64,000 nt of DNA from Squalus acanthias (taxonomy: Eukaryota): NCBI GenBank assembly GCA_030390025.1, contig CM059432.1, forward strand, positions 43,154,001 to 43,218,000, written 5' to 3'. The notes beneath the pieces were generated by a model. That model was not told the origin of the DNA and did no database searches. It saw only the letters and a program-made list of their open reading frames with translations. This document shows, one piece after another, positions 17,308 to 41,269 of this stretch. How positions within the stretch are numbered: the first letter of the stretch is position 1; the number at the start of each line of letters is the position of its first letter. A program made the translations under genes and the position numbers.

Positions 17308-19397
17308 GTTGTGTTCTGTGCAGACTTTGCAATGTGACTTATTACAATTTTAACCTGGAATGCCTCAGCAATAACATTTTTAATATCAATAGTATAATTT
17401 GAAGCCATTTTCTAAGGCGACTGCCCTAAGCCACAGCAGCCACTTCATACATATGGCATACTTTTCCATGTGAAACAAAAAATATAATTTTTGCATACTT
17501 AGTTATTTGTAGAAAAAACAATAGGCAAGTTTCCACGTAAGTAGTGTAAAGTAAGTAGTGGTTGGGCCGAATAGTCTGTTTCTGTGTTGTAACTTCTATG
17601 GACATATGTATGAGTAAAACTGTTGTACTATTACCAACTTATCCCAATAAGTACTACTAAAACTATGGTGGAGTTTGGGTCAGTTAGGCAGGCAGTTCTT
17701 TGTTTTTTTGTTCAATGCTGAAATTGGTTCGGCTGCTGCCAGTGTTTGTAATTGATGCTAGAGCAAAGTCTGAAGCTACCTCCAGTGCCTCTAACTTTGG
17801 GAAACCCATCAAAAAATCAGGTTTTATTTTAAGTCACCTTGGAATTTATGCCATTTATAGTGGCAAACTGAAACCAAGTTATGCATTCATTTATCTCCTG
17901 TTAGCAGTTATAAATTGGTTACTAAATTTTATGCATTAACTCAGCTCCCTCACACTGTCAGATTCAATAACTACTCCAAGAAAGTGTCCCTCGTCAGTAT
18001 TAACTGTTTAAACAAAAAATATTCCAGAAAAGTGATGTCAATAATAATCTTTTGTAGCTGATTATTTTTAAAGAGGGCACTTGCCTTTCTAATAATATGC
18101 CATAATTTTCTTCAACATTAGAAATTGTAGGAAATATAAAGACATAGAAATAGTTAATTGATCAATATTTATTGCTGTCGACCTTAGCGATATGCACCAA
18201 TGCACGTCACAGATTAAGATCATCTGTTTTAATTCAGTAGCCAGATACAAGATGATAGCAATTAGAAACTCGCTGCAGTCTTTTCATCAGATTACTCTAA
18301 CCTTCATTGTCAGCTTGATTGATCAGAGTCTTGTAGAGAGTCATATACCATTTGACACAAGACCGATAATCTTATGTCTTTTTGAATGGTTGATAGCCTT
18401 ACCGTTGCACTATAAGAATCAGCATTCTCCATTCCTACTAAGCATTCAATCCATGTGAATTTTTTTAGAAAATAAACTGAGAAAGCTTTAAGAAGCAACA
18501 AGAAAATGCAAACCAGTGGAAGAAAAAAATCGCTGTGCCATGCGGCCAGGGCACCTCAAACACAGTTTACACAAATTTTCAAAAAAGATGATTATTTTTT
18601 CTCATGAGGCCTTTGGTCTTCCATATGACCTTCTTCACGCAGTGAAGACAAGTTATCCAGCCTTGAGAATTGTCTGCTACTGTTTGCACTACTATTGGGT
18701 GGTTCGCCAAGAGGAGGCATGGTCATTGAAGGGTAAGACAGTTAGTGTCCATTTTTATCTTCATTGAGATGAATAACTCTGCTTCCACAACATGCACCTG
18801 CTGGTTTCCTGGCTGAAAACTAGTGAAACATATTGCAACTACAGCAGATGGATCTGATTCATATCTATGATCAGGAATGTGCATCGGATGGGGTCGCAGG
18901 AAAAGACAGGCTCTTCAAAAAAAATTATGACATCCTGCAATCCTTCTAAAAAAAATTCTAAAATGCATAAAATGTATACGTTGTTCAGAATTATTTTAGA
19001 GAAGCATATTCTTATTGCCATTGTGGGGGAGGGAAACAAGAGAGGGGATTATGGCAATATAATTATGAATACTAATTCGGTACTTGGCTCTGAGGCATTT
19101 TTCGCTGAACCTTGCTACCTTCCTATCTTCCTTTGTACTGTACAATCATTATGTTTTACTAATGTTTTGGGTTTTAGCTTTTGCTAAGCACAAGGTTCAG
19201 TTATAGGACATTTATTATGCAAATTTGCTGTCTATAACAAGTCCCAGTGTTCCTTTTGCTTGAAAAAGTCAATAATGTGATTGTTTGAACAATACAACCC
19301 ATTAAATATGTTAGCGTGGTTTTTAACAATTCTTTGATGGCTTTATCTGATACAGTCTTGGCACCAGTCAAGTTACAGCACCATCCTGAGTCCCAGA

Positions 19398-19838
19398 GGC
19401 CCTGGGATTAATGGTTGCAGCTTTCTGTTGTAGTGAGCTGATACTGTTTTACAGAATGTATTCACACATCTGGCGTACCACAGTTCCCCACTTGGCACTA
19501 ATGCCAAGCTTTCACTATGCAGCAGTAGAATCTCTCACCAGTGCCTAGTTAACTGTTTCCATCAAGGGAACGAGATAGAGCTAGCTACGAACACTCACTG
19601 TGCCCGCTGGATGTCACTGTAGTCGTCCTTATTTTTGCTTCTCGGGGGTCTTCCCATTTTACATGGAAACATTACATTTAAGCAATAACTGTAAAATATG
19701 CGCAGTTCTTAAATAAGGAGCTATTTGCATAGGGTTTCTCATAACTACTTTAATTACACTTCTTGCTGTAATTTTACTTGGAAGCTGCAAACGTCACATA
19801 GTAAAACAAGCATAACAACAGTTCTGAAATTCTGGCCC
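19398..19838. mobile_element. Possible old Harbinger-type MITE
   Basis: GGCCCTGGGATT ... AAATTCTGGCCC flanked by AGA/AGA; the TIR match is weak. Confidence 0.35.
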
Positions 19839-22367
19839 AGATTAAGGGAGGAGAATGGAGAGATTGGCCGCCTGTAGCCGAAATTTGGGTCAGAACCTGG
19901 TTCCGTTTGGATTTCACCCAATTTTTTGCTTGCAGCCATTTTTCGGCAGGAATCTACTACCTGCAACCCCCACATCTAGGGGGCATGCGTCCTGCTGAGG
20001 CCAGTATAAAGCCCTCAAACCTTTAGCTGGGGAACAGTATTCGATCCTAGAAGGAATCAGTTATCTTTCTCAAGGAGCCTGCTTGCTCCATTAAGAACAA
20101 AAGTCTAGAAGAGGCCACTTCTCTTCAGGACCTTGCTGGTCTCCTCTCTGCTGTTGGAGTGCCATGGGACCGCTCCAACTTGCTGCTAGTGGTTTAGGGT
20201 GTGTGCCACTGATGTGCCCTCGCAGGCGGCCTGCCTTGGCCATGCAGATGATCCTCCCCTGGAGCTAGAGTGGGCAGGTGTTCCGCTCTACTGCATTTGC
20301 GCTAGTGGACCAGACACACAAGATTTTCAGCCCAATTATTTGGTGATCAATCCTGCCATATCAATATTTTAGGAACATAAGATGGAATGAGTCAAATTTG
20401 TGAATGTCAGATTGGATTTTAAAAGGCTTAGCCTATGGCCAACAATATTGCAGATGTTTTAAGGGATAACATTTAATATCAGATTAAATTTTGGGTTAGA
20501 CCACATTTCAGACTACTATTTATAATAAGAAACAAAGTATGCAAAATTATGATTTTTTTAAAAACTATAGAACATACACCATGAAAAACAATCCTATTGT
20601 TATTGTTACGGTAACTGGATCACTGAAATTGCTGTACTAGTGTGCTTTTCTGTTTTATATTTCTTAAAATTATCCAGATCACTACACTATTGCATGCATG
20701 GGTACCTCTAAACACTTTGCCAGACAAGCTGGGGCAAGCTTGTGATATCTTCTGAATAGTAAATTTCATGTCTTGCCTCCCAAATGCCTCATCCCATATG
20801 CGGTCTGGAACATTCGTTCCCATTTCCAATTAGTAAAATATCCATGTGGTTTATGATTGGGGTGATGGATCTGTCGGTGAGCAATGGAGGCGATTTCTCA
20901 ACTCCTCTGCATTCCCATAGGCATGCAGCATTTGACAGATTGGACATAAGTACCATGGAGGAGTCTGACACAGATGGTGTAATTAGAAAATGCGAAGTGA
21001 GGGTGTGAAATTTATCTTTGATCAGCACCTTCTTGCCAGATTGTCATCTATGTTAATATTAAGCAGTTTCTCAGATATATAAAAAAAAACAGCAACCTTG
21101 AGGAAGAATATATACTATTGTGATATGCTTTTGAGTCACAAAATGTCATTCATTTTGTCAGATTTGTGTTCTTCGTGACAGCTGATTATTTTAACGAGTC
21201 TAAAAAAAATTGTCTTATGTTTTATGGTAAATATTACTGAATGAATAATCAGAGAAGATGCAACGGAAAGTGTTTAATTGTTCTCGCTGTGAGTACATTT
21301 TAAACTAAATCCATAGCATATAAAACTGGAAATTTAAATAAATGTTTTTCCCAGAAATCTGTACCCCAGAAATGTTCTTTAGTTTGTACTTATAGACACC
21401 AGACAATCACATTTTAATGTTCATTATTTACTTGATCCAAATATTTAGTTTGCTTGAGAAAAATAGCATAATAAATTGTTGGTCACATTTTTAGATGTTC
21501 CAGTATGTAATTAACATTACAACATTCTGATGCAGCTCTTCTCTCTTGTAATTGCTTAAGGGTGCAGAAGATACATGAGGATGTTTTTCCCTCTGCTGTA
21601 CTGGGTAGAGAGCAGCTTTTTGTCAAAATAAGCCATTAGCTATAATGGCATGTAGGTGTAATGGAATGTGCTTTAAACATCTGTGCTGAGAGCAGGGGAG
21701 AAATTGCCGCATGCAGACCTGGGCCTTTGGGGAGCATGATTAAGGACTGCTTCAGAGAACTTGAGATCTGGCATGGGATGCAAAAAATGAAGAAAGAAAA
21801 TAGTGCTAATAGAATTATAGACGCTCTGCAGGGAGAACAAAAAATTTAACATTTTTGCTGTGTCTGTGCTGTTGTTTCTGCTACATCAAACCTTTTGTGA
21901 AATAGATGATCTTACTGACTGCGATACAATATGTTGAAGTTCATATGATGCTATACTGTGTTTAACAAAGAAAGCAATTTGATGGTTCTGTGATTCCTAT
22001 ATTCTTGATACCGATTTAGATGAGTGACTGCATTATCAGTATTTCATTATAAAATTTTATTATATAAACAATAAATAATTTATTCTTTGCTAAATACCAT
22101 AATCTGATGTGCAACTATCTCAGCAGATTTTCAAGACATCAGACTGAGCATTGATTAATATGTGTTTTCCGTACTGTAGAATGTGATGTGTCAACTGCTG
22201 TATGTATTCTTTAATGCTCAATCATTTTTCCCTTAATAGATTTGGAAAGCAGTGACCCAGTCAGTGGTAGCAATGAGATTTATAGGATTTTGCTTACTCA
22301 CAAAGGGAGGAAATAAATTGCCTAACAGGAATTTTTAATTATCTGATCTAAACACATCAATAGTTAC

Positions 22368-22392
22368 ATATATATATATATATATATATATA
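22368..22392. repeat. (TA)n microsatellite
   Basis: About 12 TA units. Confidence 0.95.
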
Positions 22393-23178
22393 GCACAGTT
22401 GTATACATCATTTAGTGGGTGTAGAGATAGCCATTTAATTAATGTCAGGTGCTTTACTATTGCTTTTGTTTTGTTGCCAAAATAGGAAAATGTACCAAGT
22501 AACAGTCAGAATTATTGCCAGAGAATTTATAAAATTGTTTTGTTGCAAAAGATAAAACTAGTGCATAGCAAATGTAATTCTGAGATCAAATCTACATGCC
22601 CATTTTAATTTATTTTTGGGTTCACCTGCATTTGATCTAGGCCTGTGAATTACTATACCATTGATTATTATGCAACACTGAAACAACGTCAAGCAATTAT
22701 AAAATAAATTTGTCTGACAAAAAGTAGTCGTGGTTATTAGATAAATCTGTGAAACTATTTTATGCATCAATATAAAATGTATGTCCCGTAGATAATCATT
22801 TCAGTTGCAACAATATATCCAGGTTGAGGAGGTGTATGGAGTTTCCATTGTTAAGATTTCACATTTTTCTTTCACCACCAACAGCAGTACGGGGAAAGGT
22901 AAAGCTTGAGTTTGTATGTATGCATATGTCCAAAACATAACGTGAAAATGCTTTGAGCTTATAGGATGCTGTACATGTAAAGAAACCATAAACTAATTTA
23001 AAAGGTGGAAATAGTAAGATACATAATTTTAACAGTAATATGATTGCTGTCCATTAGTTATTTCTTAATATTAAAAATGTAAGCAAAATTTGGATGCCAG
23101 TGAGTGAAGCTCTGCCCATGTGTGCAAGCAGAACACATGCACAGAAAACCTCCATTTTCCTCTCTGGCCAGAGAGCAG

Positions 23179-23675: not shown

Positions 23676-26600
23676 GGGCTCGATTTTGCCAGGCCCGAGG
23701 AGGCAGGATTGGAGGCGTGTGAGTTGTTAAAATCGCCAAAAATGGCGTGCGGGCCCGATCCCACCTCCATCCCGCCTCCGAGCAATTTTCCCAAAAGCAT
23801 GTTTTCTGACCCCTTTTCCATCCCGCCTTAACAACCACTTAATAGCCTCTATAATCCCATTTTGAGAGGCCTTTCCGATTTTTAGTCATTCCCCCCATCC
23901 CTCACGCCTCCTCTGGAACACGCCAGGTAATGCTGGTGGCCTCACAAGTGGATTGCTTACGAACAGCTGCAGCTCCACCATTACAAAGGAGTTTTCACCA
24001 ATGATCATTTGCAGGTGGCAGAACTTTGTTGTTTCAGGTCTGGGGGAACTTTTAGCAGGCATACTCAGTGTTGTGGAAGTTTGGAGCCTGACACCCATCT
24101 CCAGTGTGACCTCCTAGGAAACCCCTCTCCCCACCTTGACTAAGCGCTTCCTCAACTGAGGCATATACCAGAAGCATGGCGACCATTTAATTCCTTTCCT
24201 CCTGGACATCAGATTCAGATGAAGACCAGCCGCGGCAGCAGCAGAACCATGAACAACAGCAGCACCAACAGCAGGAGCATCAACAGGAGTGCCAAGCTGC
24301 TAGTCACCCACCTGAAGATGCACAGGCCAGAAGTCGTCAGACCATATTGCTGCCCGGGATGCAAGGGACGCACTCATGTTGGTCACATTTGCTTAGCCTG
24401 AACAATCAAACACTTTTGCCTCGCACCTTCTTACCAGAGCATCAACAATGGACAAGAACCTGCAGATTCCTATCACTCTGACCACCATACTGACAATTGC
24501 AAGTCGCTCTAAGCCCTCAATGTGGAAGTCCCATTCCGAAATGACACAGCCCACAACTTCAACAGTTTGCCATCAGAATTTTTTATCACACAAGCAACTG
24601 GTGGCATTTCAAAAATAAACACAACGTAACACCCAAGTGACTACCCTTGTGACTACGTGTGCATTATCTTCCTCTTATGTGTGCTCCTACATGGTGTTTC
24701 CCCTGTGGCTTCAGCAGATGTGGAGGCCCCTTGCTCACTTTCTTGCTGCTCCGGTCTCGACACCTTTAGCAGCCGTCCTCTGGGGTTGCGAACCTGTGAG
24801 GGCTCGGCAACAGTCTGCTGCTCCTGCGGCTGTGCAGGGGATGAGACGCCCATCTCAGTTGGGTGAGGACTCTGGTGGGGCTCTGACCGAGGGCTTTGCA
24901 GTGGCATGGTCGTTTGAGCGCTTGGAGAGAAGCCCCCACTTCCTTGTTGTCTGCCACCAACATCCCTCTCATGGGTCAGCCCCACTTCAGAGCTAGCAAG
25001 TGGCTGGACAGCACCTTGCTGCACTTCAGGGGGGCCATGAGGACCCGTTTCTGAACTGGAAGTCCTACTCCAGAGGACTTCCATGAAGGTCTGGTTTCTA
25101 TGCTCAGTAGCTGACCATCACTCCTCAAGATACGCCAGTCTATTCTGAACAATGACCATGTTTTCTACACTCTGGCGACTTAGCTCTTCCATGGCCGGAG
25201 CCATCCTCTCCTCTACTGTAGCCATCCTTTCCACGGAGGTTGCCATCCTTTCCGTGGTGATGCGTTCATGCTCCAATGCCTCCACAAAGGCTCTGCTCAT
25301 GTTCGCGATGGACTCCTCCATTCGCTCGACACTCGCAGCGACCCTGGAGACAAAACCTGCCAGAGACTCCTGCACCTGTTCCTGGAGTTCCAGCACCGCT
25401 CTCGTTCTGGATGGACCCGGAGGCAGAGGGTCGACATGCAGCTGAGCCGAGCTGGCAGAGTCCTGCGCCCTCCGACGAGGACTCTCCACTGCTGTCCCTG
25501 TCTCCACCATCTGCTGATGCTCACTTGTGAGCTGTGATACACCAGGTGCCAACATTACTCTATCTCGCGAAGGTCCCACTGAGGTGTGAGTGTCTGCGCT
25601 GGTGCTGGGTGCGTTGAATTCTGCTGAGGCTGCGCCCTCAGAGGTTGCAGCTTCCTCTGAGGAGTCTGGAAGCTCAGGCTCTTCATCCTGGACAGTGGGG
25701 ATGGGGGCTTTCGATGGTCCTGTGGGGGAGTAAAGGAAAGAGTTAGAGATGTGAGGTCAAGGTTACATGAACATTGCATTGTGCTGATGATCATAAGTCA
25801 ATCTGTTAGAGCATCAGATTCATTATCAGTGACTCATGCCAAACTATTCTGTCACCAGCTTGCTGCGATACGCCCATCTGTCTGTCCCCCACTTGGGAAT
25901 CCTCCTCGATCCCGGTGATTTCCAGGGCCGCCTCCTCCCAGGCGGTGAGCTGGGCTACTGAGGGTGGCCCTCCTCCTGTCATGGCTCTTTCCCTCTTATT
26001 GTGGGCTCTCTTTTCCTGCAATGAGGGACACAAGTGGAGTTTGAGTGAGAATGAAGGAGTGAGTGTAGATAATCCATAACATAGATGCTTAGAAGGATAC
26101 AAAGGACCATCCCTGTGTGTTGAAAGTTGTTGTTGTCATGGCATCACAGTGATAGGGAGTGTGAGGGCTGCATGGTCGGATAGTTAAGTGATTGTGATGT
26201 TCGAGAGAGAGGGAATAGGTAAGGGTGTAGGCATGTAAGTGTCAAGTGGCATGTGGAGGAAGAGGTTGGCAAAGCAGAGTGCTGGTGAGGAGAGGCGATG
26301 GGGATCAGATTGAGGGTGATGGGAAAGTCATACTCACTTTTCCTGTGCGGAGAAGATCATGAAACCTCTTCCTGCATTGCAGCCAGGTTCTGCGGCTCAG
26401 CGAAATGGAGTTGACCTCCTGGGCCACTTGCAGCCACACAGCTTTTGTCTGCTGGAGTGGCTTTTTTCTCCCTGAGGAAGGGAACAGCACCTCCTTATTA
26501 CATTTGGCTCTCTCCACCAGAGCTTGGAGGGAGGGCTCATCAAACCGAGGTGCACACTTTTGCTTGATCGTGGACATTGTCGGGAAATCAACTCCTTCAT

Positions 26601-26857
26601 ACAATTTGCAGAGCCTTTGCAGTCTCCAGAGGAAGCAAGGCTGCTTGCAGGTCTTAAATCCAGCAGCATTGATGACATCATCGGAGGCGACTTTCTGTAT
26701 GAAAAGACTCATTGGGCCAGTGGTTCCCACACGCAGGAAATTAATTGCTCAATTAGGGGAAAATCCCACTTTTTCAGCACTTCACTTAGGAGTCGGGGTC
26801 CTGACACGATTTCCACCTGACACGCCTCAGCCCGCCCACACTGACAAAATTCAGCCC
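23676..26857. mobile_element. Harbinger element B: transposase internally deleted, Myb gene nearly intact
   Basis: TIR GGGCTCGATTTTG / CAAAATTCAGCCC; ATA TSD at 23673-23675 and 26858-26860; transposase 5' and 3' stubs fused near 24340. Confidence 0.9.
24653..26577 (-). pseudogene. Harbinger Myb/SANT-like gene, exons 26577-26338, 26015-25856, 25719-24653; one premature stop at 25118-25120
   Basis: MSTIKQKCAPRFDEPSLQALV...VWLQVAQEV...WLQCRKRFHDL; GT-AG introns; TGA where copy D has CGA. Confidence 0.85.
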
Positions 26858-27225
26858 ATAGAGTCATAGGGGTAGAAATTAGGTCGCGCCCCATTTGGGG
26901 CGCAAATATCGTCCGCGCGCAAATATTAGCGCCTGGCGCTAATTATCGGCACTGACAGGAAACTTCACTTTTACCGCCCCGGGAGGTGAGTGGAGCGCTA
27001 AATTAGGCGCTGCACACCTCTCTTAAGGCGCAAAGGCCTAGGAGTGAGGCGCTAACTCAGCGCACGAGCGCAGCGCAGCTGCTGCCAGTTAGCGCGGGAA
27101 CACAGACACACTGGCGCCGGACACTTCTTAAAGCGGGGGGGGCCACTTGCTCCCCAGCCACACCCTGCTCATTGCAGCCTTGAATCTCAGCCTGGAGAGA
27201 CCTGTAATCCATTTTGCTGCCAAGC

Positions 27226-29438
27226 ATGGAGAGGGTGAGAGAACGCGCTCATCGCTTCACCGAGCGGGCCTTGGATGCTCTGGTTGACGCAGTGGAGCGC
27301 AGACGATGCATGCTGTTCCCAGAGAGTGGCAGGAGGCCTTTGCCACGCGAGTTCAGAAGAGTGTGGAGGGAGGTGGCTCAGAGCGTCTCCTCCAGGAGCA
27401 TGGTGCCCAGGACCCATGTCCAGTGCCGCAAAAAGTTCAACGACCTCACTCGGGTCGTCAGGGTGAGTGGCTTTTTCTCAATACCTCTCCATCCCTCCAT
27501 CTCAACCTCACTCTATGGCCAGAGGGTCTTAAAACCCCAATGCACAACACTCATCCAACACCTATGGCCCTTTCATCAAACACACACACACATTCCACAC
27601 TTTGCATACAGTAAGGGCTATTCACCTATGGGAGGCACATCAGGCAAGACCATGGCTGCATACAGTAAGGGCTATTCACCTATGGGAGGCACATCAGGCA
27701 AGACCATGGCTGCATATTGTAAGGGCTATTCACCTATGGGAGGCACATCAGGCAAGACCATGGCTGCATATTGTAAGGGCTATTCACCTATGGGAGGCAC
27801 ATCAGGCAAGACCATGGCTGCATATTGTAAGGGCTATTCACCTATGGGAGGCACATCAGGCAAGACCATGGCTGCATATTGTAAGGGCTATTCACCTATG
27901 GGAGGCACATCAGGCAAGACCATGGCTGTATATTGACTCAGATGCTGTTCTTTTTCTTGCAGGCTAAGCTGGCTCATAATCGGAGACAGCAGCAACGGAC
28001 GGGTGGAGGGCGGCTTCAGCTGCAACCCCTCAGCGATCTGGAGGAGCGCGTCCACAGGATTGTGGCAAGCCGGGTGATCGGTCCCGTCGCCACTGGAGAC
28101 GCCGACCCCGTTGTGGACAGCAATGGTAAGGTCATCACCTTTTTGTCCTCTGTCCTTCCACTTGTCCCTCACAATACCAGCCTTTGACACTTTCAATCCA
28201 ACTTGCTAACTCGCTGCACTTATTCCTCCCTTACGGCCACCCTGTCCTCACGCTAAAGCCACTCTTGTACCTCCCTGCTTTCAGATGGTGATTCACCAGC
28301 TGAGGAGATGGTCCCTGAAGCTGCCACTGGGAGTGATGCTGCAGCTGAGGAGGAAGAGGAAGCCGGAGCATCAGTGCCACCCTCTCCCGAGGAAGCCCAT
28401 GGCCACACTGGGAACACGCCTTCCCCGGAGGGGAGCAGGGGGGAAGGGGCTGATGATGGTGAAGTTCCAGGACCCAGCGGGCTGCAGCAACGCCATGGGG
28501 GGGGGAGGGAAGAACGGGGGAGCAGGGGGGAAGGGGCTGATGATGGTGAAGTTCCAGGACCCAGCGGGCTGCAGCAACGCCATGGGGGGGGGAGGGAAGA
28601 ACGGGGGAGCAGGGGGGAAGGGGCTGATGATGGTGAAGTTCCAGGACCCAGCGGGCTGCAGCAACGCCATGGGGGGGGGAGGGAAGAACGGGAGCCTTCT
28701 CCCCAGAGGGAGAGTATGCCAGACACTCCTAATGCAATGGACGCAGAGGAGGAGCGGCTGATTGCAGAAATGAACAGCCAGGCGGTGGTCATGCACACTG
28801 AGCTCATGGGTGCAGTGGGAAGGGTGCCCGAATGCATTGAGGCACTGGCAAGGAGTGTGGAGCACTTCGCTGTAGCACAGGCGGATGCCACACTAAAGCT
28901 TACTGCTGCAATTCAGTCACTGGCTGCCAGGAACCCATCTGAGCCTGCTCTCATGCAGACTCAGATTGAGGCCACGCGAGCACTGACTGCTGCCATCCTC
29001 GATGGTTCGTGCACATGTCCCCGGGGCTGTCACCGCGCCGCAGCAGGCCAGCAATCTGTTCTCAGGCAAATTGCTCCGGATGCTGAAGTGCTGCCCCGTG
29101 GGAGTGCCAGTGTGTCGGGCGAGCAGGGAGTTGCTGTCCTCTCTCACGATGACAGCATTCCTGCTGCCAACACTGTCACTTCTCCACTGCACTTGCCACC
29201 GCCTGTAGGACAGACTGCTGCCGCCCATGCAGAGTTGGTGCAGTCTGCAGCCGGGCCCTCCAGGCCCAGAAGTGGTCGAGGCCGTCCTTCAGGGGCATCT
29301 GCAGTGTCAGGGTCTGACAAGCAGCAGCCTTCCACCAGCCTTGCTGCAGCCACTGAGGTCCCATTACGGAGGAGCAGTAGGGTTAGAAGGGGGGAAGTGC
29401 GCAAGGGAAGGAGATCACCCTCGAAGGGCAAAAAGTAG
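27226..29438 (+). CDS. Harbinger Myb/SANT-like DNA-binding protein, exons 27226-27462, 27963-28125, 28285-29438 (517 aa)
   Basis: MERVRERAHRFTERALDALV...WREVAQSV...QCRKKFNDL; GTGAGT and GTAAGG donors with pyrimidine-rich CAG acceptors; the spliced frame is open; the 163-nt exon 2 has the same length as in copy A; basic C-terminus. Confidence 0.88.
27604..27933 (+). repeat. 54-bp minisatellite, 6 copies, in Myb intron 1
   Basis: Unit gcata(ca/tt)gtaagggctattcacctatgggaggcacatcaggcaagaccatggct. Confidence 0.97.
28431..28691 (+). repeat. 87-bp in-frame tandem repeat, 3 copies, in Myb exon 3
   Basis: GSRGEGADDGEVPGPSGLQQRHGGGREER three times. Confidence 0.97.
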
Positions 29439-29732
29439 GAGGTGTGCCAAAATGCTGGTCATTTTTTTATTAAAGGCCGAGGTTCATGGCCCAACTTTTG
29501 TTTAGTGTTTTGGACATTATCTCCAGGTTGTGAGAACCAGTTATGTTATTGACTGTTTTTTTGTGTTTATTTCTATGAGTTTGTCATGAGGAATTGACAC
29601 ACACAGAGTTTGTACAATAAATAAGTTTCTGTATTCAAAATATACATGGCTGGTGGTTGGAATTATTGGTGCCTTGGCCGGCTTAGGGGTTGCGTGCTGG
29701 GTTGATTCGTGTTTGTAGCACTGGCAGGGGTC

Positions 29733-30893
29733 CTAGAAGCGGCTTGCTATTAGTCGTTGACGGACGGCCCTTGCAGTTTGACCATTGTGGGCCGCCCTCC
29801 TGCCTTGGTGCTGCTGCTGATCATCGTCCTCGGCCTGTTCCTCCTCTTCCTCCTCCTCCTCTTGTGGTGCTGCAAGGCCTGGTGGCATTGGCTGCGTCCT
29901 GAGGATTGCCATGTTGTGCAACATGCAGCACACCACTACGAATTTGGAAACTTGCTCAGGCGAGTACTGCAGGGCTCCTCCGGAATGGTCCAGACAGCGG
30001 AATCGTTGTTTGAGCACGCCGATTGTGCGCTCAATAATGTTCCTGGTTGCTTGTTGGCTTTCCTGGTACCGCAGCTCAGCAGGGGTGTTTGGCGCACGGA
30101 GCGGTGTCATCAGCCAGGTGCTCAATGCGTACCCCTTGTCCCCCAGAAGCCAACCAACTGGCTGATGCGGTGCCTCGAAAATTTCTGCCACAGTACTCTG
30201 GCGCAGGATGAAAGCATCGTGGCAGCTGCCCGGATAGTGGGCATTGACAGCGAGAATCACCTGTCTGTGGTCACAGACCAACTGCACATTCAAGGAATGG
30301 AACCCCTTTCTGTTCCGGAACTCCTCTGCATTCTCTCGCGGAGCACGCAAAGCCACATGCGTGCAGTCAATGGCGCCCTGCACCATGGGGAAGCCCGCTA
30401 CCCTCGCAAAGCCCATAGCACGGTCATGCTGCTTGTCTGGGGTCATAGGGAAGGAGATGAAGTCTCGTCTCCTTGTGAAGAGGGCATTGGTGACCTGCCG
30501 GATGCAGCGATGCACCGCAAACTGGGAGATATTGGCGAGGTCCCCAACAGCAGCTTGGAATGAGCCAGTGGCGTAGAAGTTCAAGGCCACTGTGACCTTC
30601 ACTGCCACCGACAGAGACGTCCTGGACCTCAGCTGAGGCTGCAGATCTGGCTGCAGCAGGTGGCAGAGCTCAGTGACCACCTCCTTGCTGAATCGCAGCC
30701 TTCGCAAACACAGCTCCTCGGACATGTGGATGTAGGAGAGCTGTTCACGATATACCCTGGGAGGGTAAGCTCTCCTGTACATGCGCCTGATGGGCCTCCT
30801 CCGTCTGGCCATCATTGCCACTCTCTGTCTGCGTCTCACTCTGCTCCGATTGAGCTGGAGCAGGACGACGCCCCCAATCATTGCAGCCCCCAT
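29733..30893 (-). CDS. Harbinger (HARBI1-like) DDE transposase, 386 aa
   Basis: [64 protein letters not shown]; uninterrupted ORF. Confidence 0.95.
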   Translation of the reverse strand: MGAAMIGGVVLLQLNRSRVRRRQRVAMMARRRRPIRRMYRRAYPPRVYREQLSYIHMSEELCLRRLRFSKEVVTELCHLLQPDLQPQLRSRTSLSVAVKVTVALNFYATGSFQAAVGDLANISQFAVHRCIRQVTNALFTRRRDFISFPMTPDKQHDRAMGFARVAGFPMVQGAIDCTHVALRAPRENAEEFRNRKGFHSLNVQLVCDHRQVILAVNAHYPGSCHDAFILRQSTVAEIFEAPHQPVGWLLGDKGYALSTWLMTPLRAPNTPAELRYQESQQATRNIIERTIGVLKQRFRCLDHSGGALQYSPEQVSKFVVVCCMLHNMAILRTQPMPPGLAAPQEEEEEEEEQAEDDDQQQHQGRRAAHNGQTARAVRQRLIASRF

Positions 30894-31408
30894 CTTCTCT
30901 TTGCCAGAAAAGTAATGAGGTACAGCAACGAAAGTAGCAGCAAAGTTAGGATGAACTAGGCAAAACTACCTCACAAAGCGTTGAGTCAATGTGGAAGTCT
31001 CTCTCTCTCTCTCTCCGAATCTCTCTCTCTCTCTCAGAACGAGTGGTGCATAAATGTCGACCACAGAAAAAGACAGGAAGAGGCCCCCTTTAAATAGCGC
31101 CCCCCCCAGCCCCAGACCGATTGATAACGTTCCAGTCTTCCGGTCGTTGGAAGCGCCAGGCGGTAAGGCAGGGGGCGCCACTCAATTTCCGCTCCAGGGC
31201 GCCCCAAGGGCGGTGCACCATGGACTGATGTCACAATCTGCACGCGCAGGTGGTCGCAGCGGTAAGTTTTAGCGCCGCCGCACAATCTCAAGTTAAGTTC
31301 TCGAGCGGCGCAAACAGCGCTGCGCCCGGGCGTTAGCGCCTTAACGCCCCATTAGCGCCCATTTAAGGCGCTAACGGGAGGCGCAACCAACTGAATTTTT
31401 ACCCCATA

Positions 31409-34400
31409 GAGTTATACAGCACAGAAAGAGGCCCTTCGGCCCATCATGTCTGCGCTGGCCATCAAGCCCTGTCTATTCTAATCCCATTTTCCAGCACTTG
31501 GTCCGTAGCCTTGTATGCTATGGCGTTTCAAGAGCTCATCTAAATGCTTCTTGAATGCTGTGAGGGTTCCTACCTCTACGACCCTTTCAGGCAGTGAGTT
31601 CCAGATTCCAACCACCCTCTGGGTGAAATAGTTTTTCCTCAAATCCCCTCTAAACCTCCTGCCCCTTACCTTGAAACTATGCCCCCTGGTTATTGACCCC
31701 TCTACTAAGGGGAAAAGTTCCTTTCTATCTACCCTATCTATGCCGCTCATAATTTTGTACACCTCAATCAGGTCCTTCCTCAGTCTTCTCTGCTCTAAGG
31801 AAAACAACCCCAGTCTGTCCAGTCTCTCTTCATAGCTGAAGCGCTCCAGCCCAGGTAACATCCTGGTGAATCTCCTCTGCACCCTCTCCAATGCAATCAC
31901 ATCCTTCCTATAGTGTGGCGACCAGAACTGCACACAGTATTCCTAACTAGCATTTTGTACAGCTCCATCATAACCTCCCTGCTCTTATATTCTATGCCTC
32001 GGCTAACGAAGGCAAGTATCCCATATGCCTTTTTAACCACCTTATCTACCTGTCTTGCTGCCTTCAGGGATCTATGTACATGCACACCAAGGACCCTCTG
32101 ATCCTCTGTCCTTCCTAGGGTCCTACCATTCATTGTGTATTCCCTTGCCTTGTTAGTCCTCCCAAAATGCATCACCTCACACTTTTCAGGGTTAAATTCC
32201 ATTTGCCACTGTTCTGCCCATGTAACCATCCCGTCTATATCGTCCTGTAGCCTGAGGCTTCCCTCCGCGCTATTTACCACTCCACCAATTTTTGTGTCAT
32301 CTGCGAACTTACTGATCATACCTCCTACATTCATATCTAAATCATTAATGTACACTACAAACAGCAAAGGACCCAGCACCAATCCCTGCGGTACACCACT
32401 GGACACAGGCTTCCAGTCACAAAAACAACCTTCGACCATCACCCTCTGCCTCCTGCCACTAATTTTGGATCCAATGTGCCAAACTGCCCTGGATCCCATA
32501 GGCTCTTACCTTCTTGACCAGTCTCCCATGTGGGACTTTGTCAAAAGCCTTACTGAAGTCCATGTAGACTACATCAACTGCACTACCCTCATCCACACAC
32601 CTAGTCACCCCCTCGAAAAATTCAATCAAATTGGTCGCACATGATCTCCCCCTGACAAAGCCATGCTGACTATCCCTGATTAATCCCTGCCTCTCCAAGT
32701 GGAGACTAATTCTGTCCCTCAGAATGTTTTCCAATAATTTCCCTACCACTGATGTTAGGCTCACCGGCCTGTAATTCCCTGGTTTATTCCTACTACCCTT
32801 CTTGAACAATGGTACTACGTTATCTGTCCTCCAGTCCTCTGGCACCTCCCCTGTGGCCAGAGAGGTTCTGAAAATTTGTGTCAGACCCCCTGCAATCTCC
32901 TCCCTTGCCTCACACAGCAGCCTGGGATACATCCCATCAAGGCCTGGGGATTTATCCACTTTTAAGCCCGCTAAAACCGCTAGTACCTCCTCCCTCTCAA
33001 TACTAATTTGTTCAAGTATATCACAATCCCCCTGCCTGATTTCTATGCCTACATCGTCCTTCTCCATAGTGAACACAGATGCAAAATATTCATTTAAAAC
33101 CTCACCCACATCTTCCGGCTCTACACACAGATTGCCACTTTGGTCCCTAATGGGCCCTACTCTTTCCCTGGTTATCCTCTTGCCCTTAATATACTTATAA
33201 AACACCTTGGGATTTTCCTTTATTTTGCCTGCCAGTGTTTTTTCATGCCCCCTCTTCGCTCTCCTAATTTCTTTTTTATGTACCCCCCTGCACTTTCTAT
33301 ACTCCTCTAGGGCTTCCATTGTTTTTAGTCCTTTGTATCTGCCAAAAGCCTCTCTTTTTTTCCTAATCCATTCTTGTATATCCCTTGACATCCAGGGTTC
33401 CCTGGGCGTGTTGGTCCCACCCTTGACCTTTACGGGAACATGTTGGCGTTGTACTCTCTCTATTTCCTTTCAAAAAGACTCCTACTGCTATGATGTGGAT
33501 TTTCCTACAAGTAGCTGATCCCAGTCAACTTTGGTCAGATCCTGCCTTATCATATTAAAATCGGCCTTTCCCCCAATTTAGAACCTTTATTTCCGGTCCA
33601 TCTTTGTCCTTTTCCATGACTACCTTAAATCTCACCAAATTATGGTCACTGTCACCAAAATGCTCTCCTACTGACACTTCTACCACTTGCCCGGCTACAT
33701 TCCTTAGAATTAGGTCCAGTACCGCCCCCTCTCTTGTAGGACTTTCTACATGCTGGCTCAAAAAGCTCTCCTGGATGCACTTTAAGAATTCCGCACCCTC
33801 TAAGCCTTTCACACTCTGATTATCCCAGTTAATATTGGAGAAGTTGAAATCCCCTACTATTATTACCCTATTATTTCTACACTTCTCTGAGATTTGCCTA
33901 CATATCTGTTCCTCTATCTCCCCCTGACTGTTTGGGGGCCTATAGTACACTCCCAGCAAAGTGCTTGCCCCCTTTTTGTTTTTAAGTTCTACCCATATGG
34001 CCTCATTAGAGGAACCTGCTAAGATATCATCCCTCCTTACAGCAATAATTGAGTCCTTGATTAATATTGTGACACCCCTCCTCTTTTACACCCCCCTCTG
34101 TCTCACCTGAAGATTCTATACCCCTGAATATTGAGCTGCCAGTCCTGCCCCTCCCTCAACCATGTCTCTGTGATAGCAACAATATCATACTCCCATGTGT
34201 TCATCAACACCTTCAATTCATCTGCCTTACTTGCAAGACTCCTTGCATTAAAATAAATGCCATCCAGCCTTGCCATACTCCTTTGTGCCGTTACATATTT
34301 GCTCTGCCTTCCAGGCTGACTTGTTTTTTCCTCTATATTTGGCTGTGCATCACCCCCTACTATAGCTCCACTCCGTATCCCATCCCCCTGCCAAGTTAGT

Positions 34401-35621
34401 TTAAACCCCCCTCAACAGTACTAGCAAACCTCCCCGCAAGGATGTTGGTCCCGTTCCGGTTCAGATGCAACCCGTCCGACTTGTACAGGTCCCACCTTCC
34501 CCAGAAGCAGACCCAGTGATCCAGGAAACTAAAGCCCTCCCTCCTGCACCAACTCTTTAGCCACGCATTCATCTGCTCTATCCTCCTATTTCTATACTCA
34601 TTAGCACATGGCTCCGGGAGTAATCCAGAGATTACAACCTTTGAGGTCCTGCTTTTAATCTGCTACCTAGCTCCCTAAATTCTTGTTGCAGGACCTCATC
34701 CCTCTTTCTACCCATGTCGTTGGTACCAATGTGAACCAAGACCTCTGACTGTTCGCCCTCCCCCTTCAGAATGTCCTGCAGCCATTCAGTGACATCCTTG
34801 ACCCTGGCACCAGGGAGGCAACATACCATCCTGGAGTCACATCTGCGGCCACAGAAACATCTATCTGTTCCCCTTACGATAGAATCCCCTATCACTATTG
34901 CTCTCCCACTCTTTTTCCTCCCCTCCTGGGCAGCTGAGCCACTCGTAGTGCCACGGACTTGGCTCTTGCTGCATTCCCCTGAGAAACCATCTCCCCCATC
35001 AGTATCCAAAACAGAAAATCTGTTGGAGAGGGAGATGGACCCAGGGGACTCCTGCACTACCTTCCTAGTTCTTTTACTCTGTCTGGCGGTCACCCATTTC
35101 CTGTCTGCCTGTGCACTCTTTACCTGCGGTGTGACCACCTCGTTAAACGTGCTATCTACGAAGATCTCAGCTTCACGGATGCGCCACAGTGACTCCAGCC
35201 ACAGCTCCAGCTCCAGATCGTGGATTTCGAGTAGCTGCAGCTGGAGACACTTCCTGCACATGTGTTCGCCCTGGACACCTAAAGTGTCCCTGACTTCCCA
35301 CATAGCACAGGAGGAGCACTCCACGCAGCCGAGCTGCCCTGCCATGTCCTACCCTTAATTTACTCCCTTTACTTCCTTTAAATTAAAGAATATTAAATAC
35401 TCTAGGGACCTTACTTCCCTTTAAACACTACTTACTCTAAACTAAAGACCTTACTTTGACTTTAACGACTGGACTGGATAAATAGTCACCAGGTCCTACT
35501 TACCAATCAGCTCCTTCCCTGGTTGTGACGTCACTTTAGCGGTTTTGCAGTTGTTGTTCTTTGACTGCTCCTGCTCTCGGACTCTTTCCCAACTCGCAGC
35601 ACTCTGTTTAAACCGCACTCC
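31409..35621 (-). mobile_element. Full-length CR1 LINE (5' UTR, ORF1, ORF2), frameshifted; its 3' tail extends to ~23670 across elements B and C
   Basis: ORF1 at 34632-35345 (CxxC..CxxC, leucine zipper, GDSIVR esterase); ORF2 pieces at 33555-33959, 32459-33391, 31897-32499 (FADDTK) and 31478-31933; 5' end GGAGTGC..AGAGTGCT..GCGAGTT as at 55668. Confidence 0.92.
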
Positions 35622-37752: not shown

Positions 37753-39252
37753 GCGGAAGGGCTTGCCATAATTTTCCAATCTTCCCTAGATGCGGGGGAG
37801 GCACCTGAGGATTGGAAAGTGGCACATGTGACACCATTGTTCAAGAAAGGGTGTAAGGACAATCCTAATAACTACAGGCCGGTCAGATTAACATCAGTGG
37901 TGGGTAAAGTTTTAGAAACAATAATCAAGGAAAAAATTAACGGGCACTTGGAGAGGTTTAAGCTAATGAAGGAGAGCCAACACGGATTTGTAAAAGGCAG
38001 ATCGTGTTTGACTAATCTAATTGAATTTTTTGATGAAGTAACAGAAAGGATTGATGAAGGGAATGCAATGGATGTTGTCTACATGGATTTTAGGAAGGTG
38101 TTTGACAAAGTAGCCACATAGAAGGCTGGTTAACAAAATTGAGGCTCATGGAATAGGTGGGTCAGTGGCAGCTTGGATAAGAATTGGCTTAAGGACAGAA
38201 AACAGCGAGTTGTGGTAAATGGCTGTTTTTCAGACTGGAGGATGGTAGACAGTGGTGTTCCCCAAGGGTCAGTGCTAGGGCCACTGCTTTTTTTGATATA
38301 TATAAATGACCTGGATATTGGAATACAGAGTAGAATTTCTAAATTTGCCGATTACACCAAACTTGGGAGTGTGGCAAACAGTGAGCATGATACCAATCGA
38401 CTGCAGCAGGACATAGAAAGGCTAGCAGAATGGGCAGATGGAATTTAATACAGAGAAGTGTGAGGTGATGCATTTTGGCAGAAGAAACTGGGAGAGGCAA
38501 TATACACTTAATGGCACAGTTTTAAAGAGTGTGCAGGGACAGAGGGACCTGGGAGTTAATGCGCATAGGTCCCTGAAGGTGACAGGACATATTGAGAGAG
38601 TGGTTAACAAAGCATATGGGATGTTGGGCTTCATAAATAGAGGTATTGAGTACAAAAATAGAGAAGTTATGCTGAACCTTTATAAAGCGCTGGTTAGGCC
38701 ACAACTGGCGTATTGCGTCCAGTTCTGGTCACCACACTTTAGGAAGGATGTGAAGACCCTGAGAGGGTGCAGAGGAGATTTACCAGAATGGTTCCGGGAT
38801 GGGGAATCTTAGCTACAAGGACAGGTTGGAGAAGCTGGATTTGTTTTCATTACAGCAAAGGAGGTTGAGAGGTGATTTGATAGAGGTGTACAAGATTATG
38901 ATGGGTTTGGAGAGGCTAGACGGGAAAAGGCTGTTTCCACTAGTTAATGGTACAAGGAGTAGGGGACACAAATTTAAGGTTTTGGGCAAGAGATACAGGG
39001 TGGAAGTGAGGAAAAACCTTTTTACACAGCGAGTGGTGATGACCTGGAACTCGCTGCCGATGGAAGTGGTGGAAGCGGAAACACTCAATATTTTCAACTG
39101 GAGACTGGATAGGGAATAGAGGGAAATAAACTTGCAGGGCTATGGGGATAGAGCAGGGGAATGGGACTGACTGGATTGCTCTACAGAGAGCCAGCATGGA
39201 CTCAATGTGCCGAATGGCCTCTTTCTGTGCCGTTATGACTCTATGATTCTAT
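37753..39252 (+). mobile_element. 5'-truncated CR1 (RT), frameshifted; tail continues at 40131-40141
   Basis: NYRPVRLTSVVGK, SGVPQGSVLGP, FADYTK; tail gactctatgattctat. Confidence 0.9.
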
Positions 39253-40130
39253 GGGCTGGATTTTACCTGCCGAGAGGAGTTGGGGGCGGGACTGCTGCCT
39301 TCTGGGTTCTAGTCCTGCCCCCAGCGACGTCCGACACACAGACGCTATTTTCCCCTGATTGGCCTTGTTAAGCCCACCCTGTGGGCTTGCTAGCCAATTA
39401 AGGGAAAGCCGGTGTCAGATGACATCAGTTGATGATGCTTCATCTGCCGATTTTCTTGGAGGGACAGGAACCATTTATTTTTGACAGATGATTTGACAGT
39501 GTTTGACAGCATTGAGGTGCTGTCAAACACTGACAATCACTGTACAAAGGTGAGCCCTTGCTCCCAGGCTCTCCAATGACTCTCTCCTTAGGATAAAACA
39601 GATGGCTGCTGCAGGTAAGGGTACAGAAGCGATCTGTCACTTCTCCCAATGAGGTGAGGGCACACAAACACTTCAAAGCTTGTCACCTACAGAAATATCT
39701 AAACACATTTAAAATGACTTTCCCAACATTTCCTTACCTCTGATACTCACCAGTGTCCCATTGCATCCTTCACACCACTTCTGCAGCTGTCATCTATACA
39801 CAAACATTATAACAGACCCACAGCACGCCTCACTTACTCTAGCGGTGTTCCCCAACGTCAGGAAGCCCGCAGCAGAAGTCTCAAAATGGGAAAAAGTCTC
39901 TTAACAGCTGTTAACTACCTGTTAACAGGCAGTTAAGTGGCTATAATCCTCTTTCCGCTGCTAGGAGTCGGGTCCCTGCACAAATCAGGTACCTGACTCC
40001 CGGGAAAATTAGTTGGAGGCGGGTTGGGAGCGGGTTTGGGACCTGCTCCCATTCTTTTTGATTTTCCCAGCAGTCCCACCTCCAGTCCCACCTCCAGACC
40101 CGCCTCCTCAGGGCTGGTAAAATCCAGCCC
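39253..40130 (+). mobile_element. Harbinger-type MITE, family M1 (diverged)
   Basis: TIR GGGCTGGATTTTACC / GGTAAAATCCAGCCC; TAT TSD at 39250-39252 and 40131-40133. Confidence 0.9.
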
Positions 40131-40141
40131 TATGACTCTAA

Positions 40142-40958
40142 GGGGGAGAAATTTGTTATCGCCCCATTTGGGGCGCAAATATCGGCCGGGCGCAAAGTTT
40201 AGCGCCTGGCATTAATTATCGCTTCTGACTGCAAACTTGGCTTCTATCGCCCCTGGAGGTGATTGGAGTGCTAAATCAGGCGCTACACACCTCTCTTAAG
40301 GCACTAAGGCCGAGGAGCAAGGCACTACTTCAGAGCGCTGGCGAAGCTCATGTGATGTCAGTCAGCAATGGAACACAGACACACTGGCGCCGGCCAGTTC
40401 TTAAAGGGGAGGGTTGATCTTGCTCTCCATCCACACCCTGCTCATTGCAGCCTTGAATCTTGGCCTGGAGAGACCTGTACATCAAATCTGCTGGAAAGAA
40501 CAATGGAGAGGCCCAGGGAAAGAGCTCAGAGTGCAGCCCCCAAGTCTCTTCTAAATCGATGCAAGGAAGGTCAAATCAAAATGAACCTGCAAAGTGCTGC
40601 TCAGTACCCAAAACTCCTTCACACAGCGTTGAATCTCTCCAGAAGCCTCTTTCTCTCTGCGTGGTGCAAAAATGTCGCCGACAAAAAAAGGCAGGAAGCG
40701 GTCACCTTTAAATAGCGCTCCCCCAGTCCCTTCCCGACTGCAAAATGCTCCCCTCAACCTGTCGTTGCTAGCGGCAGGCGGTAAGGCAGGGGGCGCCACT
40801 CAATATCCGGTCTGGGGCGCTACCGGGGCATTGCACGCTCGACTGTCGTCATGATCTGCGGGCGCAGGAGATTGTGGCCGTAGTGTTTAGCGCCGCCGCA
40901 AAATGTCTGGTCAATTAGGGCGCTAACAGGAGGCGCAAAGCAACCGAATTTTTCCCCC
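40142..40958 (+). mobile_element. Harbinger MITE, family M2
   Basis: TIR GGGGGAGAAATT / AATTTTTCCCCC; TAA TSD at 40139-40141 and 40959-40961; colinear with 7500-8392. Confidence 0.9.
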
Positions 40959-41269
40959 TAAATGTTACTTGCCACTTATCAACCCAAGCCTGAATGTTGT
41001 CCAGGTCTTGCTGCATGCGGGCATGGACTGCTTCATTATCTGAGGATTTGCAAATGGAACTAAACACTGTGCAATGATCAGCAAATATCCTCACTTCTGA
41101 TCCTATGATGGAGGGAAGTTATTGATGAAGCAGTGATGTCCTGGGGCTGAGATGATTGGCCTCCAACAAACACAACCATCTTCCTTTGTGCTAGGTATGA
41201 CTCCAGCTTTCCCCCAATTCCCAAATTTACAAAAATTGTCTTTATAACTTACAGAATGCTTGTATTGGC

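Follow-up and report, generated by a model that had tools for sequence, protein, structure and literature searches.

Does a Harbinger-type DNA transposon that has kept both of its genes open in a shark genome still work, or has it only stayed intact? We examined this question for an element at 26869–31405 of a 64,000-nucleotide stretch of Squalus acanthias DNA (the window; assembly GCA_030390025.1, contig CM059432.1, positions 43,154,001 to 43,218,000 of the forward strand), which an original prediction had proposed as a natively active vertebrate element. We have good grounds to assign it, as a full-length copy, to a young subfamily of a large Harbinger-type (PHIS) family in sharks, and on its sequence features it appears a reasonable candidate for a laboratory activity assay.

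Ends, arms and insertion site

The full-length element spans 4,537 bp (no strand assigned) and carries two genes; the other coding Harbingers within the window were broken. Its terminal inverted repeats (TIRs) were short, with the left repeat GGGGTAGAAATT (26869–26880, plus strand) and the right repeat (31394–31405, read on the minus strand as GGGGTAAAAATT) matching at 11 of 12 positions and losing similarity beyond ~12 bp. An ATA target site duplication (TSD) flanked it on both sides (26866–26868 and 31406–31408, plus strand). Inverted pairs matching at 11/12 next to a 3-bp direct repeat occurred 15 times in the window and 4–8 times per shuffle (3 shuffles), and since shuffled sequence yields such pairs too, a TIR-plus-TSD pattern was not by itself accepted as proof of an element. 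The element's limits are nonetheless marked by BLAST matches to three separate MITEs, which start or stop precisely at 26869 and 31405. In public contigs, element-free CR1 tails read ...GAGTC ATA GAGTT... (131 loose ends, run X3), which fits a 3-bp duplication at the site GAGTC|ATA|GAGTT. The TIRs and the perfect TSD that had been predicted were thus borne out.

Two CpG-rich arms lie between the TIRs and the genes. The left arm (26881–27225, plus strand) contains a TATA-like box at 27127 and recurrent (T)AGCGCC/GGCGC(A/T)A motifs, which are possible binding sites for the Myb protein; the right arm (30894–31393, minus strand) contains a TATA-like box at 31089 and a (CT)n tract, and both boxes may act in promoters. 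The spacer between the convergent genes (29439–29732, no strand assigned) holds polyadenylation-like hexamers on the plus (29469 and 29616) and minus strands (29466 and 29566). CpG decay in the arms was slight, as predicted (the outer arms had observed/expected ratios of 1.13 and 1.05, the whole window 0.43), but this was not peculiar to the copy, as a MITE at 7500–8392 equalled it (1.02 and 1.13). More diverged MITEs also keep CpG-rich arms, so we rejected CpG retention as a sign of the element's youth.

The insertion site is the 3′ octamer tail of an older LINE (31409–35350, minus strand) with reverse transcriptase and endonuclease in broken frames, which we take to be CR1 from its tail and ORF layout together with Pfam matches to both domains. 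Five of the 13 Harbinger-type elements of the window sit in CR1 octamer tails. Eight base pairs (one octamer unit) to the left of our element, in the common CR1 tail, lies a second, defective Harbinger of another family (23676–26857, minus strand, ATA TSD), with stops in its Myb gene and most of its transposase gone. The related MITE at 7500–8392 (893 bp, plus strand, ATA TSD) sits in the same register within the tail of another CR1, 94% identical to the first, and a further MITE (40142–40958, 817 bp, plus strand, TAA TSD) lies in a third CR1 tail beside a further Harbinger-type element (39253–40130, TAT TSD). Each octamer unit of the tail spells the proposed target site once, so that such tails gather Harbingers from several families.

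Perfect 3-bp TSDs flanked 9 of 12 paired elements, and 16 of the 18 half-sites had C at position −1. Outside CR1 tails, three of eight half-sites were within one mismatch of zebrafish half-sites, against a background of 2.7% (PMC3016246, in part). We infer a target rule, RANWC|NWN|GWNTY, a consensus derived post hoc from sites that were chosen by hand and are in part not independent. Insertion into the CR1 tail agrees with a target preference resembling the one known for zebrafish Harbinger3_DR, and the target selectivity that had been proposed is supported.

A MITE at 16415–17307 (893 bp, minus strand) had been predicted to be cognate. It is indeed related to the element (85–89% identical, with the first 45 bp identical and two mismatches in the last 45 bp), but it is a mosaic, with an interior like that of the MITE at 7500, and not a deletion derivative of this copy, and its TSD is imperfect (TTG/GTT). 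The element family may have mobilised these related MITEs. The original prediction did not mention the CR1-tail site, the neighbouring Harbinger 8 bp to the left, the two other related MITEs or the Q277 and Q280 departures of the transposase described below.

Coding capacity

The transposase gene (29733–30893, minus strand) is a single stop-free exon of 386 aa with a DDE_Tnp_4 domain (PF13359, E 5e-38, Pfam) and all three residues of the D-D-E triad, D176 (30368), D252 (30140) and E288 (30032), in agreement with the uninterrupted transposase originally described. It kept 132 of 138 conserved columns and ranked second among ~110 scored sequences; the triad was retained in only 52 of 109 annotated homologs. 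Two of its six departures from conserved columns, Q277 (30065) and Q280 (30056), lie three residues apart on the same helix as E288. Position 277 is N in 104/115 homologs and Q in 0/115, and position 280 is H in 96/117 and Q in 4/117. The codon at 277 is CAG, and N to Q amounts to two base changes.

The predicted structure of the transposase (pLDDT 88.9) places D176 on a strand and E288 on a helix, and its best structural matches were DDE transposases (piggyBac: Z 9.9, rmsd 5.3, 235 aligned; Tn5: Z 8.9, rmsd 6.0, 243 aligned). Solved structures gave no match at E 0.01 by sequence or at E 0.001 with Foldseek, and no PIF/Harbinger entry appeared among the 50 VIA-align matches listed, which does not exclude one. 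None of four forms of the protein was present in a protein collection by exact look-up, and a metagenome scan returned 595 pattern matches, of which 0 were confirmed. The closest proteins among the matches listed came from sharks and rays and were at most 66% identical (Pristiophorus japonicus P0001 and P0003, 65–66%), and none of the 120 relatives listed was near-identical. These relatives carry the database label ‘putative nuclease HARBI1’.

Convergent with the transposase gene is a Myb/SANT gene of three exons and 517 aa. Exon 1 (27226–27462, plus strand, as for the whole gene) encodes 79 aa with PF13873/PF13837 matches, and its ATG has A at −3 and G at +4. Intron 1 (27463–27962, 500 nt, phase 0, GT-AG) contains a 54-bp minisatellite (27603–27935, 6.2 copies), and is followed by exon 2 (27963–28125), intron 2 (28126–28284, 159 nt, phase 1, GT-AG) and exon 3 including the stop (28285–29438), which carries an 87-bp in-frame repeat in three copies (28430–28692, 100% identical) and encodes a basic C-terminus. 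Myb_DNA-bind_5 was the top-scoring Myb domain (PF13873, E 1e-9). The GT-AG sites and paralog intron positions suggest how the gene is spliced: the intron 1 donor had an identical codon and phase, and the intron 2 donor lay 159–163 nt inside exon 2, in 5/5 Myb-type genes examined. Two relatives (P0006 and P0121, BLASTP) span junction 1, and a search with the exon 1 protein gave one longer relative among 158 candidates. Residues 150–393 of the exon 3 frame had no relative among 8,000 scored, and junction 2 therefore rests on paralogs inside the window. Across the predicted junctions the frame is open, as had been claimed for the spliced 517-aa gene, and together with the ends, the TSD, the triad and the Pfam domains this upholds the description of a complete two-gene Harbinger.

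The joint action of a Myb/SANT protein and a DDE transposase is known from zebrafish Harbinger3_DR and rice Ping/Pong, and Myb-transposase contact is known for the Harbinger family. By analogy, the Myb/SANT protein would bind the element ends and carry the transposase into the nucleus and to the TIRs; the pair would then excise the element and insert it at a roughly palindromic RANWC|NWN|GWNTY site, with duplication of the middle 3 bp. Both proteins are required for Harbinger transposition, and excision is precise (PMC2836001, in part).

Copies, age and rival explanations

Contigs of a public sequencing run (X1) cover 28663–31097 and, microsatellite gaps aside, differ by four substitutions over the 2,279 bases compared. 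The same run contains a right end of the element type (one mismatch over 119 bases, vs nine for the MITE type) that continues into a different flank, and the X1 copy most likely represents another insertion site, its internal part being tied to this end by the pattern of mismatches and by depth (9.5 and 9.8) and not by one bridging contig. No X1 contig covered 31416–31600; a hole of this kind proves nothing, and the positive loose end was used. The original prediction had called for a search for near-identical copies, and the one found, at 99.8% identity and most likely with another flank, argues against a fixed single copy and indicates a subfamily that is young and multi-copy.

Of the 24 runs listed, 16 (nine studies plus one unnamed, seven organism labels) contained half or more of the sampled words, and one of these may be the window's own source; of the 20 runs with matching words, 16 were counted by word share alone. 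No run was on record as RNA, which is no evidence on expression. Run X3 had 34,258 contigs on 28700–31600 (CR1 flank included), 6,925 of them at ≥99%, a figure that is not a copy number, and summed contig depths were likewise not taken as such. Run X17, guessed to be RNA but possibly containing DNA, had contigs in 30/30 bins; these carry no strand or level and were left out of the evidence, and the stretch compared (28700–31600) contained no intron. Among the 40 of 121 difference rows listed, the window and X1 agreed against the majority of X3, X9 and X17 at many letters, and the subfamily therefore moved after those changes arose. At a rate of 7e-10 per base per generation, measured in another shark (PMC10587355), 4/2,279 (0.18%) corresponds to about 1.25 million generations (0.34–3.2 million, Poisson 95%). 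The element would thus be young on a shark time scale, of order 10^5–10^6 generations from its closest relative seen.

Is this subfamily transposing now, with our copy as a working source? Both genes, the splice sites, the TATA-like and polyadenylation-like signals and the ends are all intact, the near-identical copy probably lies elsewhere, six of ten listed transposase changes of the window/X1 type are silent, the subfamily's movement postdates the shared changes, and the MITE at 16415 pairs near-identical element ends with the interior of another MITE type. These points are offset by the age estimate, by the lack of an identical copy among the run contigs compared, by the CpG-rich arms of more diverged MITEs and by Q277/Q280 beside the catalytic glutamate. 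At 0.1–0.2% decay, moreover, both frames stay open with a probability of about 0.6–0.9 without selection, so that intact frames are expected in a young copy within a slowly mutating genome (PMC10587355). The step from intact to natively active is therefore not supported; we consider a working source unlikely, and from these data a family that moves today would be no more probable. DNA transposons are also mobilised in trans, so the presence of Q277/Q280 in the X1 copy does not prove function. The frames may thus be open and the transposase impaired, the subfamily having last been copied by a sister family's enzyme; the two departures in the E288 helix and the many related ends speak for this account, which we also hold improbable, because the two base changes from N to Q look more like lineage change than fresh decay and the remaining protein is unusually near consensus. 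That the encoded proteins still work is a proposition we judge slightly on the doubtful side of even.

Two other accounts deny the element an insertion or a transposon life of its own, and we rejected both. It could have arrived with the CR1, by duplication or 3′ transduction of a joint unit, as a like end-to-CR1 junction occurs at 8392 and in a run X9 contig (31371–31592). However, the two CR1 flanks share 94.3% identity across 436 bp whereas the adjoining Harbinger ends differ at 18/119 and represent distinct element types, the left flanks show no relationship, the tail repeat runs on both sides of the element with a TSD, and element-free tails exist, which makes such an origin very improbable. 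Even less credible is a domesticated host gene pair (HARBI1/NAIF1-like) under selection: the label of its relatives and the two open frames would suit one, but the TIRs, the TSD, the MITEs with identical-type ends, the near-identical copy with another flank, the very many variant contigs and a locus inside a LINE tail do not. We thus retain the reading as a full-length copy of a young subfamily. A bolder proposal, which we advance tentatively as doubtful, is that the transposase and Myb protein encoded by this copy, unrepaired as it is, work together, that their relaxed target, RANWC|NWN|GWNTY, leads the element into CR1 tails, and that the helix variant at Q277/Q280 is functional. If true, CR1 tails would offer harmless places to insert, in a supply that renews itself, and the element could be the first native vertebrate Harbinger seen moving in cells.

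Comparison with known Harbinger systems

Should the native pair work, vertebrates would have another Harbinger system in addition to the zebrafish reconstruction, with a related, looser target and with ready-made MITE substrates and natural sister families at hand. One could then test directly how the ends are recognised and which of the two proteins reads the target, and the system might give a target-selective integration tool. Should it not, the locus would be a single well-preserved member of an abundant family, and would teach that where genomes mutate slowly, open frames and 99.8% identity say little about present activity. The element adds to the record of young Harbingers in elasmobranchs. 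A 2022 survey reported no Harbinger in elephant shark and called for checking other cartilaginous fish (PMC9179366); a 2025 shark genome paper mentions the Harbinger type in passing only (PMC12498223), and PMC4255032 does not mention Harbinger. Among open-licence papers and bioRxiv, our searches showed neither a cell assay in which a vertebrate Harbinger was used unreconstructed nor an elasmobranch Harbinger study.

DDE_Tnp_4 with D-D-E, a separate Myb/SANT gene and short TIRs starting with G place the element in PHIS as Harbinger-type, as does a 3-bp TSD within an extended target preference (ATA/ATA here, the nine perfect pairs, the element-free tails and the non-CR1 half-sites). By its TSD it departs from the narrow PIF/Harbinger group with TWA (Han et al. 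2015), with ATA here and TAA in only 3/9 perfect TSDs, and from NuwaI with CWG (0/9 perfect TSDs; one imperfect pair, CTG/CAG). The NuwaII group shares C/G around a 3-bp TSD, TIRs beginning GG, a length of about 4.7 kb and two ORFs (PMC4482050, in part). Its target is C|TNA|G and the site here C|ATA|G, with the flanking C and G present (16 of 18 half-sites), but the core here differs from TNA by one base and ATA/TAT do not fit it, and its Myb domains are listed as mostly Myb_DNA-bind_4, whereas Myb_DNA-bind_5 is best here. Twenty-two NuwaII families were counted as potentially active with both ORFs intact, and the NuwaII table holds no cartilaginous fish (PMC4482050, Table S7, in part).

Shark and ray proteins of the HARBI1 label are closest in sequence, yet 57/109 lack the full triad. 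Coelacanth and Pleurodeles Harbingers are likewise abundant and young in large or slowly evolving genomes, with suspected continuing activity; expression was reported there (PMC5381603, PMC9179366 and PMC5741667, in part), whereas the shark element is known from sequence. Harbinger3_DR (NuwaI-2_DRer in Han et al. 2015; PMC4482050, in part) resembles it in its DDE_Tnp_4 and Myb_DNA-bind_5 genes, 12-bp TIRs, length of about 4.2–4.5 kb and 3-bp TSD inside a palindromic target, AAACAC|CWG|GTCTTT, which has the C|NWN|G core and the A at −4 of the shark sites (PMC3016246, in part). The TSD here is ATA (TAA, TAT, TTT and TTG in neighbours) and not CWG, and the Myb protein has 517 aa compared with 221. 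Harbinger3_DR was, as originally stated, rebuilt from a consensus and moved in human cells (PMC2836001 and PMC3016246, in part), whereas the shark copy is unrepaired. The implied rarity of intact natural vertebrate Harbingers did not hold up, as intact copies are in print (PMC8437027 and PMC4482050, both in part): Harbinger-Snek of sea kraits, a recent vertebrate expansion, has 269 intact two-gene copies in L. colubrina and one in L. laticaudata, with solo-ORF variants and short non-autonomous forms, and for Harbinger-Snek both a horizontal transfer and RNA reads that cover the two coding regions are reported (PMC8437027, in part). The element at 26869–31405 adds one new element to this already known Harbinger-type kind.

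Boundaries and genes of the element

The Harbinger-type (PHIS) transposon at 26869-31405 (4,537 bp) carries 12-bp inverted repeats (11/12 matching) with ATA on both flanks. Since pairs of TIR-like ends with a short direct repeat also turn up in shuffled sequence (4-8 per shuffle over 3 shuffles, against 15 in the window), we rejected this pattern by itself as proof of ends. The alignments of three separate MITEs to the element begin or stop at exactly its terminal bases, bearing out the TIRs and ATA TSD of the original prediction. Consensus matches place a TATA-like box in each arm, favourable start contexts and polyadenylation-like hexamers in the spacer, an arrangement that would fit two convergent transcripts.

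The transposase gene (30893-29733, minus strand) is an uninterrupted 386-aa frame (PF13359, E 5e-38) with the DDE residues D176, D252 and E288, as had been claimed. Using the best 120 of 356 homologs at E 1e-30, we found that the top homologs are shark and ray proteins (up to 65-66% identity), pointing to a cartilaginous fish as probable host, that the transposase matches 132/138 conserved columns, and that the triad is retained in 52/109 homologs; by conserved-column score it ranks second among about 110 sequences scored. A smaller 20-row alignment has E at the E288 column in just 5 rows, which we attribute to a subset effect. The AlphaFold model (pLDDT 88.9) is structurally similar to DDE transposases (piggyBac: Z 9.9, rmsd 5.3, 235 aligned). 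Positions 277 and 280, both in the helix bearing E288, are Q; in the same best 120 of 356 homologs, position 277 is N in 104/115 and Q in 0, and position 280 is H in 96/117 and Q in 4. These two residues would count against an otherwise consensus-like transposase.

The Myb/SANT gene (plus strand; exons 27226-27462, 27963-28125 and 28285-29438; GT-AG introns) is likewise open for 517 aa by predicted splicing, with an N-terminal Myb/SANT domain in the product. Both donors recur in 5/5 Myb-type genes examined within the window, the first at identical codon and phase and the second at 159-163 nt from the start of exon 2, and alignments of two database proteins span junction 1. Exon 3 contains three 100%-identical, in-frame 87-bp units (28430-28692; a 29-aa repeat), and intron 1 contains a 54-bp minisatellite (27603-27935; 6.2 copies, 98%) and zero CpG across 500 bp.

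Insertion sites and neighbouring elements

The element is inserted into a LINE older than itself, within the octamer tail; this LINE keeps RT and endonuclease remnants, and by its layout we take it to be CR1. One octamer unit to the left lies a defective Harbinger from a different family (23676-26857, ATA TSD). In two cases, different Harbinger-type elements occupy adjacent octamer units of a single CR1 tail, 8 bp apart: 23676-26857 with the element (region 23676-26868), and 39253-40130 with 40142-40958 (region 39237-40961). Our target set comprised 12 paired Harbinger-type elements, hand-picked from a scan for TIR-like ends, and the Harbinger at 4232-9234, added later; 5 of these 13 lie in CR1-type octamer tails (3 tails). 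TSDs are perfect in 9/12 paired elements (ATA x3, TAA x3, TAT, TTT, TTG). RANWC, a post hoc pattern from partly dependent sites, fits 13/18 half-sites of perfect-TSD elements (background 1.4%). The zebrafish target, reported as AAACACCWGGTCTTT (PMC3016246), allows a fairer test: outside CR1 tails, 3/8 half-sites fall within one mismatch of the zebrafish halves (p about 0.001 against a 2.7% background). The recurrence of the element-LINE junction at 8392 is an independent insertion, because its element ends (85% identical to the element's) are less alike than the LINE flanks (94.3%) and the left flanks are unrelated.

Harbinger-derived DNA makes up about 42% of the window (rough sum of segments), and the remaining coding Harbingers are all broken: two other Myb genes have stops when spliced, further ones are frameshifted or LINE-split, and no other transposase piece is complete. 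The Myb-bearing sister-family Harbinger at 4232-9234 (TAA TSD), in which no transposase match was found, is interrupted by LINE pieces and by the MITE at 7500-8392, itself nested in a CR1 tail. It begins 29 bp past a tandem of two related Harbinger-type MITEs, each ~800 bp long (2548-4202; 16 bp apart, TAA TSDs on both), a cluster outside any recognised CR1 tail. In the Harbinger at 45277-51117, a LINE whose RT frame is open for 778 aa (46161-48497) interrupts intron 1 of the Myb gene, and another LINE truncates the transposase (50176-51117) N-terminally. A near full-length CR1-type LINE (51256-55202) has a broken ORF2 and an ORF1 with a GDSL/SGNH esterase domain (54243-55202, E 9e-11). The AT-rich stretch 17400-23100 (37% GC), lacking a self-match within the window, is probably host intron or intergenic DNA.

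The MITE at 16415-17307 had been proposed as cognate to the element. Its first 190 bp show 8 differences from the element and 25 from the 7500-8392 MITE, whereas positions 190-510 show 6 from that MITE and positions 190-360 show 42 from the element. It is a mosaic: the ends fit the element's subfamily, but the interior is nearly identical to the other MITE and the TSD is imperfect (TTG/GTT flanks). Its mobilisation by the element is plausible.

Copies in public runs and age

Among 24 public runs listed for the query 28700-31405, 20 contained the stretch; at least half of the sampled words were present in 16 (9 studies and one unnamed row, 7 organism labels), one of which may be the window's own source. 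Runs X1, X3, X9 and X17 were compared over 28700-31600, from contigs only and with 40 of 121 difference rows seen. X1 looks like a single clone, given its small size (0.14 Mb) and a loose end that we take to be a cloning-vector promoter. It provides a near-identical copy of the kind that the original prediction called for, covering 28663-31097 with 4 substitutions among 2,279 compared bases. Its long contig ends 30 bases into the 87-bp repeat; this break at the repeat start would be expected if the X1 copy also carries the repeat, which may therefore be a subfamily trait. X1 has two right ends, one with 9 mismatches/119 to the element (equal to the count for the 16415 MITE) and one with 1 mismatch/119 that runs into flank unlike the window's. 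None of the X1 contigs bridges the internal copy and the 1-mismatch end, which we assigned to that copy from its mismatch count and the similar depths (9.8 and 9.5).

X3 gave 34,258 contigs on 28700-31600, CR1 flank included; of these, 6,925 matched at ≥99% and 15,497 at 90-95%. The X9 pieces were long and close to 99%. At the positions seen, the window and X1 share letters that differ from the X3/X9/X17 majority, and these shared changes are silent in 6/10 (transposase) and 2/7 (Myb exon 3). The element therefore sits on a young branch, whereas the family as a whole is large, mostly older and common to several organisms. On 29063-31405, single low-depth X3 contigs join across internal gaps (e.g. 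29063-30364, 29240-31405), the pattern that internally deleted family members would leave.

At the mutation rate reported for the epaulette shark, 7e-10 per base per generation (PMC10587355), the 0.18% between the window and X1 copies corresponds to ~1.25 million generations (0.34-3.2 million), a figure that borrows its rate from another species and compares a run that may not be of the window's species. After 0.1-0.2% decay, and with an assumed indel rate, both frames would be open with probability about 0.6-0.9 under no selection. The claim of little CpG decay in the arms held as an observation (1.13 and 1.05 vs 0.43 for the window), but arm CpG is equally high in the 7500-8392 MITE, though its ends are ~14-15% different from the element. 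Intactness therefore speaks for youth on a slow clock and not for present activity, and the step to a natively active element does not follow. The element is real, intact, young, multi-copy and target-selective, and is a candidate for activity only.

Mechanism and known relatives

In this family, both proteins are reported to be required for transposition: the Myb protein binds the TIRs, and it also binds the transposase and carries it to the nucleus. Excision is mostly precise, and target preference reaches past the TSD (PMC2836001). By analogy, the element would use the same two-protein mechanism, with TIR binding and nuclear import of the transposase by the Myb protein, and precise excision. 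It would thus work like Harbinger3_DR, the zebrafish element reconstructed from a consensus. It shows those features of Harbinger-type PHIS elements that were tested and, by TSD, is an exact fit to none of the narrow groups described by Han et al. (PMC4482050).

A literature search of open-licence papers and bioRxiv found no report of a native vertebrate Harbinger being assayed; Spy, a native insect PHIS element, is reported as already assayed (PMC11304231). Intact two-gene elements are common in the survey of Han et al., which counts 88 families of PIF/Harbinger and 22 of NuwaII as potentially active (PMC4482050). Harbinger-Snek has 269 fully intact copies in one sea krait (PMC8437027), and Harbingers that are young or expressed have been reported in coelacanth, newt and teleosts (PMC5381603, PMC5741667, PMC9179366). 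The element adds another member to this known Harbinger kind, of which intact vertebrate copies are already known.
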